Shown piece by piece: positions 7,541 through 37,880 of a stretch of DNA of 49,026 nt. Each line of letters begins with the position of its first letter. Position 1 is the first letter of the stretch. The DNA is taken from positions 1 through 49,026 of the forward strand of contig CAZUDK010000004.1 of assembly GCA_964618905.1 (NCBI GenBank), in the 5' to 3' direction. A program made the position numbers and the translations under genes. Source of the stretch: an uncultured Candidatus Saccharibacteria bacterium. Its GTDB lineage: Bacteria > Patescibacteriota > Minisyncoccia > Phycocordibacterales > Zambryskibacteraceae. The notes beneath the pieces are model-generated. The model did not search any database. It was not told where the DNA came from and saw nothing but the letters and a program-made list of their open reading frames with translations.

Positions 7541-7570
7541 GCCCCGCCGATTCAGCCGAATCGGCGGGGC
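7541..7570 (-). terminator. rho-independent terminator of gene 7594..7989
   Basis: GCCCCGCCGATTC-AGCC-GAATCGGCGGGGC, 13-bp stem, followed on the minus strand by TTTTCC. Confidence 0.75.
7550..7567 (+). repeat. 18-nt direct repeat, copy 2 (ATTCAGCCGAATCGGCGG)
   Basis: Exact match to 6879-6896. Confidence 0.8.
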
Positions 7571-7593
7571 TACATCAACAACAATTCAGTGCC

Positions 7594-7989
7594 TCATTCC
7601 CCAGTCGGAGTCATGCCGGAGAAATCGACCTTCGAGGAGTCGAAGGGAACAGGCCGGTCCAGAATCACCCTGCCGAGAACCTTCTTGAAGTGCTCCTTGG
7701 CGGGGACAGAAATTCCGTTGATCCGGAAAACAGCATTACTCTCTAGCACAGAGAAATACCTGCTGTTCTCAGGGATGTTGAAGAATTTGCACCCGTCCCA
7801 TTCAGGGTCCTGGGAACCATCCTTCATCTTGCACCGGCTGCCCTCCCGCACCAAGCCGCATTGATTCCGATAGGTGGGAGTAAATGAGAGCCCGGCACCT
7901 TTCATTCCGTAGAACGGGCATCTTGGCCAGTCATTCTGAAGTACAGACAAGCGAAGCTCCGGCCTAGCGCGTTCGGTAGAAGAAGACAC
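7594..7989 (-). CDS. hypothetical protein (131 aa, 4 Cys), orphan
   Basis: GTG start at 7987-7989 preceded by CCAAGGAGGTCCAA. No recognisable domain. Confidence 0.6.
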   Translation of the reverse strand: MSSSTERARPELRLSVLQNDWPRCPFYGMKGAGLSFTPTYRNQCGLVREGSRCKMKDGSQDPEWDGCKFFNIPENSRYFSVLESNAVFRINGISVPAKEHFKKVLGRVILDRPVPFDSSKVDFSGMTPTGE

Positions 7990-8547: not shown

Positions 8548-8618
8548 TGCCCGATCGTCTAATGGCAGGACGCTTGGTTTTGGTCCAAGAAATTGGGGTT
8601 CGAGTCCCTGTCGGGCAG
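8548..8618 (+). tRNA. tRNA-Gln (anticodon TTG)
   Basis: Acceptor TGCCCGA/TCGGGCA, anticodon arm CTTGG-TTTTGGT-CCAAG, T loop TTCGAGT, discriminator G. CCA is not encoded (followed by CCG). Confidence 0.9.
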
Positions 8619-8619
8619 C
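8601..8619 (+). repeat. 19-nt direct repeat, left copy (CGAGTCCCTGTCGGGCAGC), inside tRNA-Gln
   Basis: Exact match to 10253-10271. Spans T-loop position C56 to one base past the discriminator. Confidence 0.9.
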
Positions 8620-8709
8620 CGTTTAGAGCGTCGTACGAGACGCGTTCATACATCTCTTTTCAAGCTCTGCATAGAGTGGTATTGTTGGTGCCAGCGATAC
8701 AATCCAACC

Positions 8710-9279
8710 ATGAAAGAAATTGAGATTTTGATAGAAGTTAAGAGTGATATAGAAACGGCCAAGAAAGCTCTTGAGCAGTTTGAATTTGTTGGTGCTAAAG
8801 AAGTTATTGATGTCTACTTCACAAGCCCATTTAGGAAAGATTTGCAGCCTGATGAGAGCGGCAGATTAAATAATTGCTACAGAATTAGATCAAAAGATGG
8901 AAAGGCATCTGTTGCCTACAAAGTAGATCACTTCGATAACAACACACAGTGGTCTCATTCTGATGAACACGAAACTGAAATTGGAGACTTTACAACTGCG
9001 CTTGAGATTAATCGCCATCTTGGATTTGAAGAACTCGTAAGAATTGATAACACGAAGTACACCTACATGACTCGTGATTACGAAATAGTGCTGGAGGATG
9101 TAAAGAATCTCGGACTTTTCCTTGAGGTTGAGAAACTTGAGCAGGTCCCAGATGAAAAAGTTGCCGAAACAAAGGAGGAAATTAGAAACTTTCTTAATAC
9201 TCTCAATATTGAATTCGGTGAGGAACAGAATGCTGGAAAGCCAGAGTTAATGATAAGGAAGATTAAGAATCATGGATAA
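8710..9279 (+). CDS. CYTH-domain protein (class IV adenylate cyclase / CyaB-like triphosphate tunnel enzyme)
   Basis: Start set at MKEIEILIEVK (ExExK signature), because the track start 8593 lies inside tRNA-Gln. Also CYRIRSKDGKASVAYK and LGLFLEVE, both typical of CYTH. Confidence 0.75.
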   Translation: MKEIEILIEVKSDIETAKKALEQFEFVGAKEVIDVYFTSPFRKDLQPDESGRLNNCYRIRSKDGKASVAYKVDHFDNNTQWSHSDEHETEIGDFTTALEINRHLGFEELVRIDNTKYTYMTRDYEIVLEDVKNLGLFLEVEKLEQVPDEKVAETKEEIRNFLNTLNIEFGEEQNAGKPELMIRKIKNHG

Positions 9280-10030
9280 TGAGCAAATAAGTTTGTTGCT
9301 TGAGTCTAATGCCAAATTAGCAGAAAGTATTGCAAAATCATTACCTTCATTAATTGAATCGTTAGCAAAGACTAAATTTAAATATACTAGCAAAGCACTT
9401 TTAGGTTTACTTTCCAGAAGTGGGTATCTAAATAGTGCAATTCTTAGTGAATGCAATAACAGGAATGTGTATTCTTCCGCGGTTTTATCTCGATCTATTA
9501 TTGAGCATAATTTTCGACACCTTTACATATACGTTAGAGCATTAAATGAAAATGACGACTCAGTTGGAGAGCGATATTGTAAAAACCTTAAGGCAAATGA
9601 GGATCTTGAATCATTTGAAAAAATCAATAATTACAACAAGGTAGTCTATCCAGAAAAAGATAAATTAAGCACTAAGGGTGATAATAATAATGCAATTCGA
9701 GAGTCAGGAAAGGAATTCCGCATCGAGCAAATATTTTTCTATCTGGTTTCTAATAACAACGATAGTATTAAAGAGATTGAACAATATAAAAAAGAGTACC
9801 TTCTGGGCCGTTTAGAGCAATATACAAATTTTTCTTCTTCAGTACATGGTGGACCGTTTGGTGCAGCAACACTCGAGAATTCCCACCAGAGTAATATTGA
9901 GAATGATTTATTAAGATTCGCACAGAATAGCAACGAGCTACATAAAAGCTTAGTGGAAGCAACTTATTTATTTGGATATTTAATGGACGGCACATTAAAA
10001 GATTGTTACGAGGAGATCAAAAAAATTTAG
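9272..10030 (+). CDS. hypothetical 252-aa helical protein, start overlaps the CYTH stop (ATGGATAATGA)
   Basis: An 8-nt overlap with the upstream gene suggests translational coupling. Low G+C. Motifs RSIIEHNFRHLYIYVRAL and SSSVHGGPFG; family not recognised. Confidence 0.6.
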   Translation: MDNEQISLLLESNAKLAESIAKSLPSLIESLAKTKFKYTSKALLGLLSRSGYLNSAILSECNNRNVYSSAVLSRSIIEHNFRHLYIYVRALNENDDSVGERYCKNLKANEDLESFEKINNYNKVVYPEKDKLSTKGDNNNAIRESGKEFRIEQIFFYLVSNNNDSIKEIEQYKKEYLLGRLEQYTNFSSSVHGGPFGAATLENSHQSNIENDLLRFAQNSNELHKSLVEATYLFGYLMDGTLKDCYEEIKKI

Positions 10031-10080
10031 TGCTCGAGACGCGTCGCTTTGAGTGCTAAAATAAGCTCAATTCCGTCAAT

Positions 10081-10253
10081 CTGGGCTTGGCCGATTAAGG
10101 TCCCAGCCCGAGACGGCCAGCAATGATTTGCAAAAACAGCTGGGAGCTGTTTGAGCAAAGCATCATTGCTTGTTTCGAGAGGGACGAGAAAGCCGGAGCG
10201 CGGCGGAGTGAGGCGGGGTCGAGCAAATTTTCAGCAGAAAATTATGCGTGACC
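10081..10253 (+). ncRNA. candidate structured element, copy A (strand of expression not established)
   Basis: Hairpins CTGGG..CCCAG (10081-10106) and AGCAATGAT...ATCATTGCT (10119-10170, with inner AAACAGCT-GGG-AGCTGTTT), then GCCGGAGCG, GCGGGG and P3 = GGTC GA GCAAATTTTC-AGCA-GAAAATT(A)TGC GT GACC (10217-10253). Confidence 0.5.
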
Positions 10254-10271
10254 GAGTCCCTGTCGGGCAGC
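10253..10271 (+). repeat. 19-nt direct repeat, right copy (tRNA-Gln 3' fragment)
   Basis: CGAGTCCCTGTCGGGCAGC identical to 8601-8619. Followed by CAA, the trailer seen after three other tRNAs in this window. Confidence 0.9.
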
Positions 10272-14432: not shown

Positions 14433-16043
14433 TTAGGATCCTTTGTACGTCTGGGACACGCCCTTGACGTTCATATACTTAAGGATGAGGCCAGACTCTT
14501 CGCTGTACGGAATTACATCGGCCGAAACCGGCGGAGTGATCGTCCAATCGTAGCAGCGCTTCACTTCCGGAGTCGTGATGCTCGTCTGCACGCAGACGAT
14601 AACCGTTCCTTCTGAGACACCGCGGAGCACGGCATGAATGCCTGCGTAGTACTGAGTTCCATCAATGGTAATGATGTTATCAGCACCTGCTACTTGAGCT
14701 ACATCAGGACGACTCAAGTACCAGAACGGCTGGCAATTCGTTGTACCGGATGGCCAGTTCTGCACTGCAAGCGTTCTTGTACCATTCGCCGGAAGCGACC
14801 CGCCAGCTGGCAAGTAGTCGATTGTCGTCGGGCAAGTTGGCGCAGGGGGTGGATTGACTACCGTGAGCACGCCAGAGTCCGAGACAGACGTGTTCGCCAC
14901 GGCTCTTGCAACTACGGTTATCGTGCCTGGCTCATTGCATCTGAGCACAAGATCGTTTGGAGCCCGTGTTACAACAGAGGCAACGCTCGAACTCGGAACA
15001 TCCCACTCCACCGCAGTCGATGAAATGACTCCAGTGTAATGGACAACCGCGCTGAAGTTGGCATGATTGCCGACAACACAATCCTGAGCCGGAGGAACTA
15101 CTTCGACTTGAGTCACCTGCCCCGTAGGACCGGCGCACTCGACTACTGTAACTTGAACTTGAGTGGTTCTCCCATCCGTTGTAGTGAAGGTGAGAGTCCT
15201 TGTACCCACTCCGATTGGAGTGAAAGTAACACTCGAGCTTGTCCAGGTTACGCTTACTACACCTTCGCCGCCAGAAACGGAAGCAATAGTTCCGCCACTG
15301 ACAGTTGTCGTAGCAGAAATCATCGAGCAACCGTTGCCTTCGATGCGAAGCTGCGGCGGCGTACCGACCGTGAAATCTTCTGAGGGACAAGCATTAACCG
15401 TTACGGAAACGGTGTCTGCCTTGCCCTGCGGAGTTGTTCCGACGACCCGAGCCGTACCCGAAGCATTGTTCGTGTTCGCATTGACAGTAACCGTCCGGCT
15501 GTCCTTATTAGTAAGGAAAGCCAGTGCTCCGTCGAGCATACTCCAGACGCTGATGTCCTTGTCCGAACTGACGAAAGCCTTTGAAGGGCCACTCGCTGGA
15601 CAAGCCGAACCCCAGATGAGATTCGGATTTACCGACAAGATCGGCTTCTCCGGTTCCGCCGGACCAGACGTTACAACAAGGGTACGCGTCTCAGTAACCG
15701 ACCCGCTCTGATTGCTGCAGGTCAGGCTGTACGAGAACGTACCCGCTGAAGGCGGAGTAATTACCTCACTAAGAGTGAGGGAATTCACTTCACCATCCCA
15801 GTCGCCGCCCTTGTCCATAGGCGGAATGCCCTTGGGACAGCTCGCTTTCGCTAGCACGCTCTGGCCAAGAGTGATGTTATTGGCCGAAAGAGTGAAGGTC
15901 AGGTCAGGAGGCTGGCCCGGTGGCCCGCCTCCTCCGCCCTCTCCAGGGCCGGTGATTACTATCACCTCGGCCTTGGAACTTGCGTCGGCTTTGCAGCCGG
16001 CTATCAGCACAAGGGCCGGCAAGACGAGCCACAAGCGGTTCAT
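14433..16043 (-). CDS. lipoprotein with tandem Ig-like (Big_2-type) domains
   Basis: Lipobox LVLIAGC. Thr/Val/Gly-rich beta-repeat segments (...ARVVGTTPQGKADTVSVTV..., ...GTITVVARAVANTSVSDSGVLTV...). GGAGAGGA RBS upstream. G+C-rich by spot count. Confidence 0.7.
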   Translation of the reverse strand: MNRLWLVLPALVLIAGCKADASSKAEVIVITGPGEGGGGGPPGQPPDLTFTLSANNITLGQSVLAKASCPKGIPPMDKGGDWDGEVNSLTLSEVITPPSAGTFSYSLTCSNQSGSVTETRTLVVTSGPAEPEKPILSVNPNLIWGSACPASGPSKAFVSSDKDISVWSMLDGALAFLTNKDSRTVTVNANTNNASGTARVVGTTPQGKADTVSVTVNACPSEDFTVGTPPQLRIEGNGCSMISATTTVSGGTIASVSGGEGVVSVTWTSSSVTFTPIGVGTRTLTFTTTDGRTTQVQVTVVECAGPTGQVTQVEVVPPAQDCVVGNHANFSAVVHYTGVISSTAVEWDVPSSSVASVVTRAPNDLVLRCNEPGTITVVARAVANTSVSDSGVLTVVNPPPAPTCPTTIDYLPAGGSLPANGTRTLAVQNWPSGTTNCQPFWYLSRPDVAQVAGADNIITIDGTQYYAGIHAVLRGVSEGTVIVCVQTSITTPEVKRCYDWTITPPVSADVIPYSEESGLILKYMNVKGVSQTYKGS

Positions 16044-20380: not shown

Positions 20381-22561
20381 ATGACAAAACTTTTAATTGT
20401 AGAGTCGCCGTCAAAAGCGAAAACCATAGAGAAGTATCTCGGCAAAGACTTTCGCGTAGTCGCTTCTGTCGGGCATATAAGAGACTTGCCTAAATCAAAC
20501 AAGGCAGCTATCGACATAGCTGGTGGATTCGTGCCACATTATGAAATCTCCAAAGGTAAGGAAAAAGTCGTTTCAGAAATTAAGAAGCTTTCAAAGAAAG
20601 CTGACGAAGTAATACTGGCCACAGACCCTGACCGCGAAGGAGAGGCTATCGCCTGGCATATTAAAGAAGCTGTGGGGCTTAAAGACCCAAAGCGTATAGT
20701 CTTCCATGAGATCACAAAAGAGGCGGTTCAAGAAGCTCTTGAACATCCTCGCAAAATTGATAAAGACTTAAGGGAGGCGCAGGAAGCGCGCAGAGTACTC
20801 GACAGGCTTGTCGGTTACGATCTTTCCGGCCTTATCTGGAAAAAAGTTCGATACGGCCTTTCGGCAGGACGAGTACAATCCCCTGCTCTTAGAATCATTA
20901 TGGAGCGCGAGCGAGAGATCAGAGCTTTTGTTCCTGAGAAATTCTGGACTATCTCGGCCATTCTGCAAAACAAAGACAAAGAAAATCTTGAGTTCATCTG
21001 CTCTGAAGAACCGAAGGATGAAAAAGAAGTCGAGAGAATAATAAATAGCGGCAAGACTGGAGCGTGGAAAGTTACTGATATTAAAGAGACTCAGGTAGCG
21101 CGCGCTCCGCGCGCGCCCTTCATAACCTCCACCCTCCAGCAAGCGGCAAGCTCCAGGCTTGGCTTCTCGCCTTCCCGCACTATGGGTATTGCTCAGAAGC
21201 TCTATGAGGCAGGTCATATAACTTATATGAGAACCGACTCGACAAATCTCGGCAAACAAGCTCAGAGAGATATAGCTTCTCTTGTTAAAAATAAATACGG
21301 CGAGAATTACTTTGAATCTCGATCATTTACAAAAAAATCCAAGAATGCCCAGGAAGCACATGAAGCAATCCGCCCGACTAAAATGTCTTTGGAATCCGCC
21401 GGCGCTACAGAAGAACAGAAAAAACTTTACAGACTTATCTGGCAGAGAACTATTGCAAGCCAAATGAAATCTGCTCAAATAATGCGCACTAAGGTAACAG
21501 CCAACATAACTGGCTCAGGCGAACCTGTTCCTGACTTTTGGTTAAACGGCTCTCGCATTATATTCGACGGCTGGCTGAGATCTGACCCGCACGCCGCAAA
21601 AGAAGATGTGCTTCTCCCTGCTTTGGAAAAAGATGAATCCTTAAATCTGATTAATATAAATTCAGAAGAAAAAGAAACCACGCCTCCGGCAAGATATTCG
21701 GAAGCAGGTCTTGTTAAAGAGCTCGAGAAACGAGGCATCGGCCGGCCGTCCACTTACGCATCTATTATAAAAACTCTCGATGACAGAGGTTATGTAGAGA
21801 AAATAAACAAAGCTCTGCACCCTACTGACACCGGAGAAGTAGTAAGCTCATTTCTTGAAGAGCATTTTCCAAATTATATAAGCGACTCCTTCACCGCATA
21901 CATGGAAGACGAGCTCGATGACATAGCAGCCGGCGACCGCACTTATAAAAAGACTTTGACTGATTTCTATGAGCCGTTTATCAAAGATATTAAATCCAAA
22001 GAAAAGATAGAAAAGGCTACCAACCTCGGAGAAGCACCAGAGGATATTAAATGCCCGACCTGCGGCGGACCAATGATCATAAAACTCGGCAAAGGCGGAA
22101 AATTCCTTTCCTGCAAACGCTTCCCTGAGTGCCAAGGTGCAAGGACGATGGAAGGCAAGGAACTCGAAGGTCCAAAAGATACAGGAGAGCTTTGCCCGAA
22201 GTGCGGCAAAGCCAATCTGGTAACAAGAGAAGGCAAATTCGGATTTTTCACAGCATGCTCAAGATATCCTAAGTGCAAATATGTAAAGAAAGATGAAGAA
22301 CAAGAAAAAGCGAACTCTACAGGTATTCAGTGTCCGGTCTGCAAAGAAGGATACATGAGCGAGCGCCGCGGCAGATACGGAGTCTTCTACTCATGCTCGA
22401 ATTATCCGGACTGCAAATATGCCATCAAAGCCAAGCCTACAGGCAATATCTGCAAAATGTGCGGAAGTTTGATGATGGAAGGCACAAAAACGATACCGGA
22501 GAGGTGTAGCGATAAAGCATGCCCGAATCATCGGCCAGACAAACTTAACTCGGACAAATAG
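20381..22561 (+). CDS. topA: DNA topoisomerase I with C-terminal zinc-ribbon repeats
   Basis: Start set at MTKLLIVESPSKAKTIEKYLG (TOPRIM). ITYMRTDS is the active-site Tyr region. Four CPxCG...C..C zinc ribbons at the C-terminus. Confidence 0.95.
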   Translation: MTKLLIVESPSKAKTIEKYLGKDFRVVASVGHIRDLPKSNKAAIDIAGGFVPHYEISKGKEKVVSEIKKLSKKADEVILATDPDREGEAIAWHIKEAVGLKDPKRIVFHEITKEAVQEALEHPRKIDKDLREAQEARRVLDRLVGYDLSGLIWKKVRYGLSAGRVQSPALRIIMEREREIRAFVPEKFWTISAILQNKDKENLEFICSEEPKDEKEVERIINSGKTGAWKVTDIKETQVARAPRAPFITSTLQQAASSRLGFSPSRTMGIAQKLYEAGHITYMRTDSTNLGKQAQRDIASLVKNKYGENYFESRSFTKKSKNAQEAHEAIRPTKMSLESAGATEEQKKLYRLIWQRTIASQMKSAQIMRTKVTANITGSGEPVPDFWLNGSRIIFDGWLRSDPHAAKEDVLLPALEKDESLNLININSEEKETTPPARYSEAGLVKELEKRGIGRPSTYASIIKTLDDRGYVEKINKALHPTDTGEVVSSFLEEHFPNYISDSFTAYMEDELDDIAAGDRTYKKTLTDFYEPFIKDIKSKEKIEKATNLGEAPEDIKCPTCGGPMIIKLGKGGKFLSCKRFPECQGARTMEGKELEGPKDTGELCPKCGKANLVTREGKFGFFTACSRYPKCKYVKKDEEQEKANSTGIQCPVCKEGYMSERRGRYGVFYSCSNYPDCKYAIKAKPTGNICKMCGSLMMEGTKTIPERCSDKACPNHRPDKLNSDK

Positions 22562-22580: not shown

Positions 22581-22588
22581 GCAACTAG

Positions 22589-22677
22589 TTTTTGTGAGAC
22601 GAAAGCGATGTTTCGCCAGCAGACGAAACCGCGAGTCGGGGTCGCGGAAATTTCTGAGCGACGGCGAGGAAATTATC
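22589..22677 (+). ncRNA. candidate structured element, copy B (truncated, not next to a tRNA)
   Basis: GCGATG, then P2 GTTTCGCC-AGCA-GACGAAAC (22610-22629), then CGCGAGTCGGGG, then P3 GGTC GC GGAAATTTC-[14 nt]-GAAATT(A)TC. The 3' closing strand is replaced by the parB stop region. Confidence 0.45.
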
Positions 22678-23690
22678 TAAATAGAAAAATTCGCCACCGA
22701 GTAGAGGTCTTCGTCCTCTGGTTCATCTTCGGCCATAACCTTCTCTTCCTCCGTCAAAGGCTGAGCATTGCCTGCTATTTCATTAACATTCATTTCTGAT
22801 ATTTCTTTATCTACATCCACAAAGCCGCTGCCTCCTTCTTTCTCAGCTGCACCTGTAAGCTTGTCGAGAAGCGCACGCAGATCTTCCTTTGAGAAAAAGT
22901 CTATAGTAACCCTTCCGCCTCCCTCACCTTCACCCTGACCGGCTTTGGCAGATGTTTTTTCTATACGGACTCGCGTGCCAAGAGTTTCTTTGAACTTGTC
23001 TTCTATATCTATAAGTTCCGGGTCTATAAGCTTACGAGCTCTTTCAACTGCGATATGCCTGGCTATGTTTTCCGATTCCCTGACATTAAGCTTCTTGAAA
23101 ATTATTTCCTTGAAAAGTGTTTCCTGCTCTGAAGGTCTGTCTATGAGCATCATAAGAGGACGAGTATGGCCCTCTGTTATCTTGCCTTCCGCGAGAGCCT
23201 GAGTGATATAATCCGGCAGCGTTAAAATCCTCAAAGTATTGGTAACATATTCGCGGCTTTTGCCAACCTTTTTTCCTATTTCAGCATGCTTGAAACCAAA
23301 CTCCTTAACTAACTTATCAAAAGCTTTAGCTCTATCGACAGGATTCAGATCTTCGCGCTGAATGTTCTCGATGATAGCAAGCTCGAGCTTCATCAAATTG
23401 TTCTCTTCACCGGAACGGATAAGAACAGGAACCTGCTGGAGACCGGCAAGTTTAGAAGCCCTAAGTCTGCGCTCTCCGGCAATGAGTTCATACTCTGTGG
23501 CCAAGCCGCCTGCAGGAGTTTCAACCTCTTTGCGCGTTACTACAAGAGCCTGAAGAACACCGTACTGCCGTATGGAATCTGCTAGAGATTTTAGCTGAGC
23601 TTCGTCAAATTCCCTGCGAGGCTGAAACGGATTCGGTTTGATTTTATTGACCTCGATCCAGAATATTGAATCATTATAGAAATGCGACAT
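22677..23690 (-). CDS. parB: ParB/Spo0J chromosome partitioning protein with acidic C-terminal extension
   Basis: IEVNKIKPNPFQPRREF, GERRLRASKLAGL, HTH, and dimerisation region. About 60 extra acidic residues at the C-terminus. Confidence 0.9.
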   Translation of the reverse strand: MSHFYNDSIFWIEVNKIKPNPFQPRREFDEAQLKSLADSIRQYGVLQALVVTRKEVETPAGGLATEYELIAGERRLRASKLAGLQQVPVLIRSGEENNLMKLELAIIENIQREDLNPVDRAKAFDKLVKEFGFKHAEIGKKVGKSREYVTNTLRILTLPDYITQALAEGKITEGHTRPLMMLIDRPSEQETLFKEIIFKKLNVRESENIARHIAVERARKLIDPELIDIEDKFKETLGTRVRIEKTSAKAGQGEGEGGGRVTIDFFSKEDLRALLDKLTGAAEKEGGSGFVDVDKEISEMNVNEIAGNAQPLTEEEKVMAEDEPEDEDLYSVANFSI

Positions 23691-23824: not shown

Positions 23825-23935
23825 GCGAAGCTTGTGGGTGGGCTTGAAAGGCGGAGCGATGTTTTGCTAGCAAGCAAAACCGCGAGCCGGGGTCGAGAAA
23901 ATTTGCGAGCGATGGCGAGCAAATTATTCGTGACC
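23822..23935 (+). ncRNA. candidate structured element, copy C (most compact complete copy)
   Basis: P1 CCCACC..CACAAGC-GAA-GCTTGTG-GGTGGG (uses the tRNA 3' end); GGCGGAGCG (23850-23858); P2 GTTTTGCT-AGCA-AGCAAAAC (23861-23880); CGCGAGCCGGGG; P3 GGTC GA GAAAATTTGC-[12 nt]-GCAAATT(A)TTC GT GACC (23891-23935). Confidence 0.55.
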
Positions 23936-23955
23936 AAGTTCCACCTCCAGCACAA
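23935..23955 (+). repeat. 21-nt direct repeat, right copy (tRNA-Leu 3' fragment)
   Basis: Begins at the same T-loop position (C56) as the Gln repeat. Directly follows GTGAC. Confidence 0.9.
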
Positions 23956-24047: not shown

Positions 24048-24455
24048 ATGAATCCTGAAAATTATCGAAGGAAGATGTGGGTTAGTCTGGCTGTGCTGGC
24101 CGGCTGTGTAGCTTTCACGATTTTGAATGTAATAGTCTTGTTGACGTATCCCCTCAGCCCCTCGCTCCACATCTTCGCCATACGAATCAACGGGACAGCG
24201 CTGGTGATTTTGGGCTTAGTGGCATTCTTTAATCTCGGAAAAGAGCCCCGAAGCGACCACCTGTTCGGCAACATGGTTCTCTTCTTTGCCTTGGCCACCA
24301 TCTCATACTTGAGTAACCTCAATGTTGTGATGGTGTGGATCGGCATGGTCACGAACTTTGCGATATTCATTTTACTGTCGTTCGAGGCGCTGCGACAGAC
24401 GATAGAGATACATCGAGAGAACAAGAAGAGAAAGAATCTTTCGATGTTGCTCTAA
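24048..24455 (+). CDS. hypothetical 4-TM membrane protein
   Basis: 135-aa hydrophobic ORF. AGAGGA lies 4 nt upstream of the ATG. Strong terminator downstream. Confidence 0.55.
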   Translation: MNPENYRRKMWVSLAVLAGCVAFTILNVIVLLTYPLSPSLHIFAIRINGTALVILGLVAFFNLGKEPRSDHLFGNMVLFFALATISYLSNLNVVMVWIGMVTNFAIFILLSFEALRQTIEIHRENKKRKNLSMLL

Positions 24456-37559: not shown

Positions 37560-37632
37560 GCCCCTATAGCTCAGCCGGTAGAGCAGACGCCTCTTAAGCG
37601 TAAGGTCCTAGGTTCGATCCCTAGTGGGGGCA
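37560..37632 (+). tRNA. tRNA-Lys (anticodon CTT)
   Basis: Acceptor GCCCCTA/TGGGGGC, anticodon loop CTCTTAA, T arm CTAGG-TTCGATC-CCTAG, discriminator A. Followed by CAA. Confidence 0.9.
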
Positions 37633-37783
37633 CAAGAGTGCAAAAATATGCTCTGCTGCATGTTTTTGCACTCTTGTGCCGGGCGGAGCGTTACCGAGCC
37701 TGTAGGCGAGGTCGCGAGCCGGGGTCGAGAAATTTTGCGAGTCCTGCCGGCAGGCAGAGACAACGAGCAAAATATTCGTGACC
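37633..37783 (+). ncRNA. candidate structured element, copy D1 (complete)
   Basis: P1 is a 16-bp perfect hairpin, CACAAGAGTGCAAAAA (37631-37646) / TTTTTGCACTCTTGTG (37663-37678). Then GGGCGGAGCG, a P2 hairpin 37691-37712, CGCGAGCCGGGG (37713-37724), and P3 GGTC GA GAAATTTTGC-[28 nt]-GCAAAAT(A)TTC GT GACC (37723-37783). Confidence 0.55.
37652..37690 (+). repeat. 39-nt exact direct repeat, copy 1
   Basis: TCTGCTGCATGTTTTTGCACTCTTGTGCCGGGCGGAGCG is identical to 37804-37842. Confidence 0.95.
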
Positions 37784-37867
37784 ACAAGACCTTACAGAAT
37801 CGTTCTGCTGCATGTTTTTGCACTCTTGTGCCGGGCGGAGCGATGTTATGTTCAAACATCAAACCGC
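37784..37867 (+). ncRNA. candidate structured element, copy D2 (5' part only, tandem to D1)
   Basis: CACAAGA (from 37783), 14 unrelated nt, then a 39-nt exact repeat of D1, then GCGATG-hairpin-AAACCGC as in copies B and C. Breaks off 13 nt before tRNA-Leu(TAG). Confidence 0.45.
37804..37842 (+). repeat. 39-nt exact direct repeat, copy 2
   Basis: Identical to 37652-37690. Confidence 0.95.
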
Positions 37868-37880
37868 AATTATATACAAA

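Follow-up and report, generated by a model that had tools for sequence, protein, structure and literature searches.

A cargo-bearing insertion at a tRNA-Gln gene and its family of small, probably non-autonomous elements with a folded end in Patescibacteria

Introduction

The islands that occupy bacterial tRNA genes (tDNA islands, tycheposons among them) have a recognizable layout: integration splits the tRNA gene, which the incoming element restores, and the old 3′ fragment ends up displaced at the far end; successive arrivals stack beside the tRNA, leaving partial-tRNA remnants; and the cargo is of an accessory or defense type. We describe here a locus that, with its family, appears to resemble such islands in these respects. 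It lies at positions 8548-10271 of a 49,026-nucleotide (nt) stretch of an uncultured Candidatus Saccharibacteria bacterium (contig CAZUDK010000004.1, forward strand; the whole stretch is called the window below), a member of the Candidate Phyla Radiation (CPR), or Patescibacteria. Here a tRNA-Gln gene is followed by two genes of low G+C content (GC) and then by a conserved folded motif that abuts a second copy of the tRNA 3′ end, and the same motif closes a family of much smaller units.

Two further groups of systems invite comparison. Integron cassettes, and the attachment sites of CTX phage and of integrative mobile elements exploiting Xer (IMEX), share with this family promoterless cassettes that encode no recombinase, a strand-specific imperfect hairpin at the cassette end (attC in integrons) that supplies a duplex recombination site within a single strand, arrays in which the newest cassette lies beside the primary site, and "empty" cassettes. 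In the IS200/IS605 elements, their miniature derivatives, the palindrome-associated transposable elements (PATEs), and the IS110 bridge-RNA elements, as may be the case here, the target is chosen by pairing of an element-encoded single-stranded segment with the sequence at the cleavage site; these groups also have subterminal hairpins and non-autonomous miniatures mobilized in trans. Integrase-less units such as cis-mobilizable elements (CIMEs) and those resembling miniature inverted-repeat transposable elements are likewise att-flanked, lack a recombinase and are presumed to be mobilized in trans. CIMEs are kilobase-sized decay products of specific integrative and conjugative elements in Firmicutes, and we know of no conserved folded junction in them.

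Results

Insertion at tRNA genes and gene ends

The original prediction, made from the letters of the window, placed an exact 19-nt direct repeat inside tRNA-Gln and again beyond the two genes, and both copies are present: CGAGTCCCTGTCGGGCAGC has exactly two exact matches in the window, no third match appears there with up to three mismatches allowed, and none of 100 shuffles yielded two. The left copy begins at T-loop position C56 of tRNA-Gln (junction ggtt^CGAGTCC; the caret marks the boundary throughout). As was also predicted, the right copy is directly preceded by a conserved hairpin, P3, with further hairpins upstream. The unit has the canonical ends of its family: a regenerated tRNA 3′ end (X) at the left, and at the right the core of a three-way junction, the 5′ arm (X′) of which pairs with the repeat.

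Related loci are cited below by numbers prefixed L. Those with the core motif were gathered by matching a fixed pattern of 17 bases, taken from the module, to species-representative genomes and to metagenome collections, which gave at least 120 loci in each collection (at least 240 public loci), nearly all of them assigned to Patescibacteria or unclassified. A same-strand tRNA gene, of one of 19 types, ends no more than 320 nt upstream of 121 of the 179 evaluable cores. The flank that follows the terminal GTGAC of the core is the tRNA from C56 onward in 69 cores and begins 2-3 nt before the tRNA 3′ end in 18; its first base is C in 150 of the 179, so that the boundary reads ...CGTGAC^C(G/A)A. 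Repeats typically start at C56, extend 1-3 nt past the discriminator and measure 19-21 nt; some are longer or shorter.

A conserved gene of 504 amino acids (aa) with tRNA-Leu(caa) just upstream allowed 80 related loci to be compared at one site, and the core is present in only about 9 of them. In many of the empty loci (L276, L290, L295-L297, L305, L312 and others) the tRNA is followed directly by promoter-region sequence (...TTATCCACA...TTGCATTATCTCATATATGAGATATACTG); in L282 it is followed by a 130-nt unit, the repeat and then the sequence found 3′ of the tRNA in empty loci. L259 is filled as well, with a 29-nt repeat, and in L323, L327 and L284 a second, related core type occupies the same point. 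Because one site is empty in many genomes and filled in few, the units of this family are insertions. In L282 (2233-2460) the acceptor stem of the live tRNA-Leu (GCTCGGG/CCCGAGC) is fully Watson-Crick with the left copy and would require two G·U pairs with the displaced copy (CTCGGGC), which would fit replacement of the 3′ end accompanied by a compensatory change, or the entire tRNA having been co-transferred.

The 3′ end of topA is also a target. In L011 (3653-3960) and L016, and apparently in L117, the element follows the topA stop codon and a hairpin. In these topA loci GTGAC is followed by 33 identical nt and then by sequence that has diverged and still codes for the topA C-terminus (...KTIPERCSNKTCPNHNPHKKGK and stop). 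A diverged, still-coding C-terminus after an identical stretch indicates that the left copy is a homeologous replacement and not a target-site duplication. The displaced C-terminal remnant is seen after GTGAC in both L011 and L016, and in L011 it is still coding. The topA copy in the window has the same left half as the L011 and L016 copies, and its X′ (GTTTTTGTG) matches CAAAAAC in the C-terminal (zinc-ribbon) coding region of topA near 22486. This copy is truncated at its 3′ end against the convergent parB gene.

Units also accumulate, with decaying older copies farther downstream (L015, L096, L198) and units in tandem in L005, L010, L025 and at the tRNA-Lys locus of the window. We compared X′ with both repeat copies in 37 elements whose copies differ within the first 12 nt. 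Counting Watson-Crick pairs only, the tRNA-resident copy is the better partner of X′ in 27 elements and the displaced copy in 4, and the two tie in 6; with G·U pairs allowed the figures are 20, 1 and 16. X′ is thus kept matched to the functional target as the displaced copy drifts, which suits an element for which its own left-end copy, or a role as guide, is what counts.

The folded junction

Read 5′ to 3′, the consensus comprises a variable X′; a purine junction ((G)AAAG or GAGAAAG); P2, with a G-N-C...G-N′-C base, a conserved GGAG/(C/T)GAG internal loop and a variable hairpin; P3, GGGGTCG(C/A)G-N-AAWTTT...AAWWTAT-N′-(C/T)GTGAC; and the flank X, the first 8-12 nt of which pair with X′ as helix P1 and close a three-way junction of about 75-100 nt. 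Covariation supports this fold. Across 98 sequences 97.1% of cells are paired, versus 82.3% in column shuffles, and double-change cells number 274 versus 76 in the shuffles; slid controls were 33-52% paired. Single pairs vary as GC 46, AU 39 and CG 9 in one instance and as AU 62 and UA 36 in another, and the N/N′ pair of the P2 base (GNC/GN′C) is Watson-Crick in 89 of 101 copies. In P3 one G·U pair is kept in 97 of 98 copies, beside a pair that is GC in 56 and GU in 41; with the bulged A of the same hairpin, it recalls the extrahelical features of the folded, strand-specific attC. Pairing of P1 in cis exceeds that in permuted controls (mean run 5.0 versus 3.29 ± 0.14).

Folding is more stable for the tRNA-sense strand than for its complement, whether as RNA (-40.2 versus -31.5 and -49.2 versus -37.3 kcal/mol) or as DNA (-20.3 versus -15.2 and -25.7 versus -22.7), so that the top single strand is what folds. 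The module matches no Rfam 15 family: only tRNAs reach the gathering score, and nothing relevant appears at E ≤ 10. Ribozymes of the hammerhead, hepatitis delta virus and hatchet types, which the layout of the junction had suggested, were set aside, because the conserved cores differ and Rfam gave no such match. Searches of the literature by topic and by sequence string found no description of the element family. We rate the structured motif as uncatalogued, and the family as integrative or cassette-type mobile DNA with that motif at its end.

Members of the family

Four instances of the motif GGGGTCGNGNAAWTTT lie in the window, all on the + strand, and a covariance model picks out exactly these four copies there, the next best match scoring 13.9 bits on the opposite strand. 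In the collected loci the model finds 80 copies in 64 loci, and several copies per 8 kb are common. Among the matches listed, those in species genomes almost all bear the label Saccharibacteria, Paceibacteria, Nomura-, Kaiser-, Taylor- or Moraniibacteria, or are unclassified. The module has no match in 2.9 million viral contigs, and an origin as a phage attP site was dropped for that reason.

Most units are small. Of 65 elements with a matched tRNA, 59 measure 104-225 nt, two about 335 nt and four more than 350 nt, these last being 594 nt (an array), 1002 nt (L160), 1652 nt (this window) and 5171 nt (L004). The tRNA-Gln unit is therefore a rare cargo-bearing member of the family. The 5.1-kb unit of L004 carries a periplasmic-binding-protein gene and has no recombinase domain. 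In L160 (2985-4100) two identical small units come after a tRNA-Ser gene, and their right flanks are identical over 46 nt; the pair encloses one open reading frame (ORF) of about 190 aa and unassigned function, a tRNA-like scar precedes the second unit, and the layout is cassette-like.

Several further observations concern variant cores. The second core type has the form X′-GAAAGG-ATTTTCG...CGAAAAT-tail^X, at the same T-loop insertion point; it lies at L123 4983-5047 and upstream of the 504-aa gene in L323, L327 and L284. It has only the X′-GAAAG junction in common with the family described above (family 1), and the covariance model (R1) misses it. In L002, L024, L026, L037, L059 and L085, copies with the 5′ arm GAAATGCGAA..TTGAAGCATTTCA adjoin 5S rRNA-like sequence on the opposite strand, which suggests an rRNA-operon-associated class of targets. 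A short motif, AAAGGTGTACTG..GT(G)TAAG, recurs beside some cores (L091, L100, L101, L039). At the tRNA-Lys(ctt) locus of the window (37631-37870) the 3′ arm of a terminator-like hairpin also serves as X′, and the second unit, marked by a 60-nt repeat of 83% identity (37631-37690 and 37783-37842), reaches tRNA-Leu(tag).

The cargo and its origin

The two genes between the repeats overlap, as had been proposed, and do so by 8 nt. The first product is a predicted class IV adenylate cyclase, or CYTH member, scoring above the curated cut-off (Pfam CYTH, 7e-14; TIGR00318, 77.7 bits against a cut-off of 57.95), and in the PDB it matches triphosphate-tunnel enzymes (7ns8, 6.5e-10). The second matches Pfam DUF5677 at 1.5e-5, below the Pfam cut-off, and has 141 homologues, mostly from CPR bacteria. 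Its AlphaFold2 model is all-alpha (mean predicted local distance difference test score, 89), and the PDB returned no sequence or fold match. Residues R74, E78 and H79 are invariant and form an R-x4-H motif; that this protein is a HEPN-like nuclease is a guess, to which the fold search lends no support. An NCBIfam match to XerC (E = 0.094 over 34 residues) was discarded as noise.

In other genomes the DUF5677-like homologues adjoin large serine recombinases, Xre-type helix-turn-helix genes and restriction-modification genes. DUF5677 is reported to be enriched in serine-recombinase defense islands; the ORF tested was not among the protective ones (PMC12632615, preprint). PADLOC matched neither cargo protein to a known anti-phage system, and PHROGs gave neither a functional assignment. 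Pfam, NCBIfam, PADLOC and PHROGs revealed no recombinase domain in either protein, in agreement with the original prediction. The cargo is a horizontally acquired operon with a probable defense-island or accessory role.

Composition supports a foreign origin. The cargo genes have GC of 0.377 and 0.329 against a mean of 0.44 (standard deviation, 0.038; 38 genes), that is, z = -1.65 and -2.9, and the second is the lowest-GC gene in the window. The low GC that had been noted earlier holds against the window average of 0.436; the contrast was exaggerated, however, since the lines used for comparison (7561-7680) lie in a GC-rich ORF (z = +2.7). Outliers on the high side are the ORFs at 7594-7905, 14433-16043 and 24048-24455 (GC z = +2.7 and +3.0; z for GC at third codon positions, +2.7), and two of these three adjoin element-bearing tRNAs. 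A scan predicted no terminator between tRNA-Gln and the cargo genes, and the sole promoter-like site upstream of them sits 5′ of the tRNA, so co-transcription with tRNA-Gln is possible.

Positions 8602-10122 are 90% identical over 1530 nt to metagenome contigs L123-L128, the flanks of which are otherwise unrelated. Backbone genes have GC of 0.53-0.57 in those contigs and 0.436 here, while the cargo block stands at 0.38 in both. Such identity within an unrelated, higher-GC backbone means that the block has moved horizontally, and it lies beside tRNA-Gln in both genomes. In L123-L128 it follows a 28-nt repeat of the tRNA-Gln(ctg) 3′ end, and a 2.4-kb strain-variable island and a second-type core lie between tRNA-Gln(ctg) and that repeat. 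No family-1 core adjoins the block in L123-L128, the only other genome context found for the CYTH/DUF5677 block. In the interval L123 2675-5047, compared with L125/L126, the gene content between tRNA-Gln(ctg) and the 28-nt repeat differs among closely related contigs (267, 119 and 142 aa in one, 267 and 275 aa in the other; GC 0.34-0.62), and this interval looks like a strain-variable islet.

The shared block ends at a tRNA-Gln-like 3′-end scar (reading ...CCCGAGACGGCCAGCA / ...CGAGACGGCCAGCA). Directly 3′ of it in the window stands a hairpin, H0 (AATGATT...ATCATT), which in the small elements L096 and L109, of the same subtype, begins directly at the tRNA 3′ end. X′ of the tRNA-Gln core matches the live tRNA-Gln repeat and not the scar. 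Formally 8601-10252 is one unit; its interior looks like an older tRNA-Gln-associated block that a small element has captured or that has become stacked with one. The original prediction had offered two readings of the small elements, as cargo-less versions of a cargo-carrying element or as elements one of which had captured cargo. The idea is supported in part, by the shared canonical ends, the rarity of cargo-bearing members, the foreign and horizontally transferred cargo and the lack of a recombinase inside. Because the block has its own scar directly before H0, capture by or stacking onto a small element fits at least as well as derivation of the small elements by loss of cargo. An exact 10-mer (CGAGACGCGT) flanks the two cargo genes, a related CGAGACGG occurs at 10109, and L123 has the right-hand 10-mer with one mismatch; the pair may be an inner cassette boundary.

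Table 1. Features of the tRNA-Gln locus and other copies of the element in the window
Feature	Position	Strand	Score or source
tRNA-Gln(ttg), target gene	8548-8620 (ARAGORN); 8548-8618 (Rfam tRNA)	+	ARAGORN; Rfam, 55.2 bits
Left repeat copy (X): regenerated tRNA 3′ end, C56 to discriminator plus 1	8601-8619	+	
Cargo-block leader: small hairpin and 10-nt motif CGAGACGCGT (8636-8645)	8621-8709	+	
Cargo gene 1: CYTH/triphosphate-tunnel protein, predicted class IV adenylate cyclase (CyaB)	8710-9279	+	equivalog score
Cargo gene 2: DUF5677-like all-alpha protein	9272-10030	+	
Cargo-block non-coding tail: second CGAGACGCGT (10035-10044), hairpin (10081-10106), tRNA-Gln-like 3′-end scar (10107-10122)	10031-10122	+	
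Hairpin H0, AATGATTTGC...GCATCATT	10123-10168	+	
Core at tRNA-Gln	10176-10264	+	77.6 bits
P1 5′ strand (X′), TTCGAGAGGGAC, complementary to start of repeat	10173-10185	+	RNA and DNA folds, family alignment
Junction GAGAAAG	10186-10192	+	
P2, short hairpin	10192-10214	+	
P3, conserved hairpin GGGGTCGAGCAAATTTTCAGCAGAAAATTATGCGTGAC, bulged A, terminal GTGAC exactly abutting repeat	10215-10252	+	
Right repeat copy: displaced tRNA 3′ end, P1 3′ strand	10253-10271	+	
3′-truncated copy behind topA	22582-22694	+	51.1 bits
Cargo-less copy behind tRNA-Leu(caa): 131-nt unit, repeat CAAGT(C/T)CCACCTCCAGCACA with 1 mismatch	23834-23946	+	95.3 bits
Copy behind tRNA-Lys(ctt): repeat starting at tRNA 3′ end (CACAAGA)	37666-37794	+	75.8 bits
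Partial second unit at tRNA-Lys locus	37783-37870	+	
Sequence adjoining tRNA-Gln at a would-be empty site, AACGTTTAAAAAACG			
Would-be circle or tandem junction, ...GCGTGAC joined to CGAGTCCC...GCAGCCGTTTAG			

Discussion

We favor, with moderate confidence, the view that 8601-10252 is an insertion in the T-loop of tRNA-Gln (T55^C56) by a non-autonomous, cassette-like integrative element of a Patescibacteria family that is moved in trans. The left end of such an element is a replacement copy of the 3′ end of the target gene, which keeps the gene intact; the body is usually a terminator-like hairpin and occasionally cargo; and the right end is the three-way junction, in which an X′ of 8-12 nt pairs with the segment starting exactly at the crossover, beside the variable P2 and the highly conserved P3 ending in GTGAC. 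We suspect that a recombinase encoded elsewhere recognizes the folded tRNA-sense single strand, as single-stranded DNA or as RNA, and exchanges strands at GTGAC^C with a same-sequence site, most often NGGTT^C(G/A)A of the tRNA T-loop. New arrivals would displace older copies downstream and build arrays, much as happens with integron cassettes and in tRNA islands.

The regenerated target end, the homeologous left copy and the stacking of units beside the target favor site-specific recombination of the Campbell type at GTGAC^C over cut-and-paste transposition with target duplication. No recombinase is enriched near the elements (clustering of the ORFs around the 120 listed loci returned only housekeeping neighbors), none is encoded in cis, and there is no link to phage, so the enzyme would have to act in trans. 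Pfam identified topA, parB, miaA, RNase R, IF-2 and similar genes among the window neighbors, with no IntI/attI platform among the window genes scanned. The junction sets the target-identical X/X′ duplex coaxially beside the conserved hairpin, exactly at the point of exchange. By analogy, such a geometry resembles the folded single-stranded attachment sites of integrons (attC) and CTX phage, and it could equally be that of an RNA which guides an enzyme to donor and target.

The family nonetheless departs from each of the systems it recalls. Unlike tDNA islands and tycheposons, its members have no integrase or replication module in cis, most are only 104-225 nt long, and they carry a conserved, covarying single-strand three-way junction at the crossover; moreover, a single core family serves at least 19 tRNA types and topA. 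Without an integrase in cis the units fall outside the definition of a tDNA island. They fall outside that of an integron cassette because they lack GTTRRRY/RYYYAAC core sites (R″ RYYYAAC, R′ GTTRRRY, G^TT), the boundary being GTGAC^C; their primary site is a tRNA T-loop or gene 3′ end in place of attI or dif; P3 is highly conserved at the level of primary sequence, while the conservation of attC lies mainly in its structure; and no link to IntI or Xer has been demonstrated. IS200/IS605 elements insert 3′ of a tetra- or pentanucleotide without duplication, and neither they, PATEs nor IS110 elements carry a replacement target 3′ end or leave a repeat of about 20 nt such as the 19-21-nt repeat here. 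The guides of these elements are 4 nt long (TnpA) or occupy a pair of internal loops (bridge RNA), and no TnpA, TnpB or DEDD gene was found.

The T-loop is reportedly a known sublocation of crossover, and one rival reading is an ordinary tRNA-gene islet that a classical tyrosine-integrase island or a prophage left behind, with the module as its arm region and its integrase deleted. The adjacency of DUF5677-like homologues to large serine recombinases elsewhere can be counted for it, and a split, regenerated tRNA with a displaced 3′ fragment is described as a hallmark of tDNA islands in PMC4383910 and in a tycheposon preprint. We consider such an origin improbable, given that 59 of the 65 sized units are too small ever to have held an integrase, many of them with perfect repeats, that no recombinase family is enriched among the 120 listed loci and none of the viral contigs has the module, and that double-stranded arm sites have no need of strand-specific covariation in a single strand. 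Strong structural conservation, the near-invariant G·U, the conserved unpaired purines and the constant co-orientation of element and tRNA would suit a vertically inherited host RNA or cis-element of tRNA operons, active in processing, termination or regulation, in which the repeat serves only to form P1; so would the retention of the P1-forming bases of the right repeat while its remainder decays (L032, L096) and the many right-copy changes that stay G·U-compatible. Against these stand the patchy occupation of a syntenic site, where a second core type appears in other genomes, the tandem and decayed copies, the copies at the topA 3′ end with their displaced coding remnant, the terminator-like hairpin usually found between tRNA and core, and an X′ that tracks the tRNA and not its partner in cis, and we regard a host RNA as unlikely.

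Two RNA-based origins seem to us far less plausible still. P3 has a bulged A 9 nt from its ...AC 3′ end and presumably resembles group II domain VI, and the 3′ flank base-pairs with the element, so the units might be imagined as 5′-truncated copies of an RNA element made by target-primed reverse transcription, with the repeat as a target-site duplication. In two cases (L018, L084) the right copy even has a CCA that the gene lacks; CCA is generally missing from right copies, however, and an RNA origin of the right repeat through post-transcriptional CCA addition was rejected because only those two cases suggest it. Rfam gives no intron match, whether to domain V or VI, even at E ≤ 10; no reverse transcriptase lies among the neighbors; the left copies are homeologous replacements and not duplications; and the sizes are uniform, with no ladder of truncations, all of which make a retro-element footprint highly improbable. 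The order of scaffold and guide, with the guide beginning exactly at the element boundary, and the GGTT that precedes the matching tRNA site recall instead an RNA-guided nuclease or transposase, P2-P3 being the scaffold, the tRNA 3′ end the guide and GGTT a target- or protospacer-adjacent motif; the omega RNAs of TnpB and IscB and the tRNA-homing CRISPR RNA of type V-K CRISPR transposons are the precedents. Such an RNA would target the adjacent intact tRNA, its putative seed is sequestered in P1, Rfam has no omega-RNA-type match, and no TnpB, IscB or Cas gene was found in the scanned regions of the window or enriched near the 120 listed loci; we give this idea very little credence.

Several points weigh against a mobile element moved in trans as we have drawn it. 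The cargo block occurs elsewhere without the family-1 core and has its own tRNA-like scar, so the 1.65-kb unit may be a stack of two pieces and not a single mobile unit. Conservation of the tRNA 3′ end in any case blurs the left edge of the shared block, which can be placed only between 8602 and about 8629; from about 8629 onward the homology with L123 is clear. In the search for an empty tRNA-Gln site of this genome, exact-protein look-ups returned occupied contigs only, and in the nearest genome of the species collection a flanking protein is 38% identical and synteny is absent. No excised form was seen, there being no circular contigs, and no recombinase has been identified for the family. 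Because the loci were collected with a fixed 17-base pattern, its positions are bound to be invariant, and relatives that have diverged are under-represented. A host-serving RNA, too, could show conserved G·U pairs and purine-rich junctions. Finally, the scheme gives no account of how a matching replacement end and a matching X′ arise for more than 19 different targets; one possibility is heteroduplex repair after insertion at T-loops that share CGAAT or CAAGT.

A bolder idea, which we put forward only tentatively and consider rather doubtful, is that Patescibacteria possess a nucleic-acid-guided form of site-specific recombination, in which a junction of about 100 nt carries an 8-12-nt X′ guide that sets the insertion point for a single enzyme acting in trans. 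If this were true, the family would constitute an integron-like gene-capture platform with tRNA T-loops and conserved gene 3′ ends as docking sites, retargetable by base pairing.

The genomes of CPR bacteria are tiny, and few mobile elements have been recognized in them. On a conservative reading, the family adds to these genomes an uncatalogued structured motif and a practical marker of island boundaries. It is a high-copy family, with four copies in 49 kb here, that marks the entry of foreign genes at tRNA genes and conserved gene ends without disruption of the target. If the folded junction is indeed the substrate or guide for an enzyme acting in trans, it would represent a compact new recombination system with targets defined by base pairs, which would bear on gene exchange in the CPR and might serve as a tool for genome engineering.

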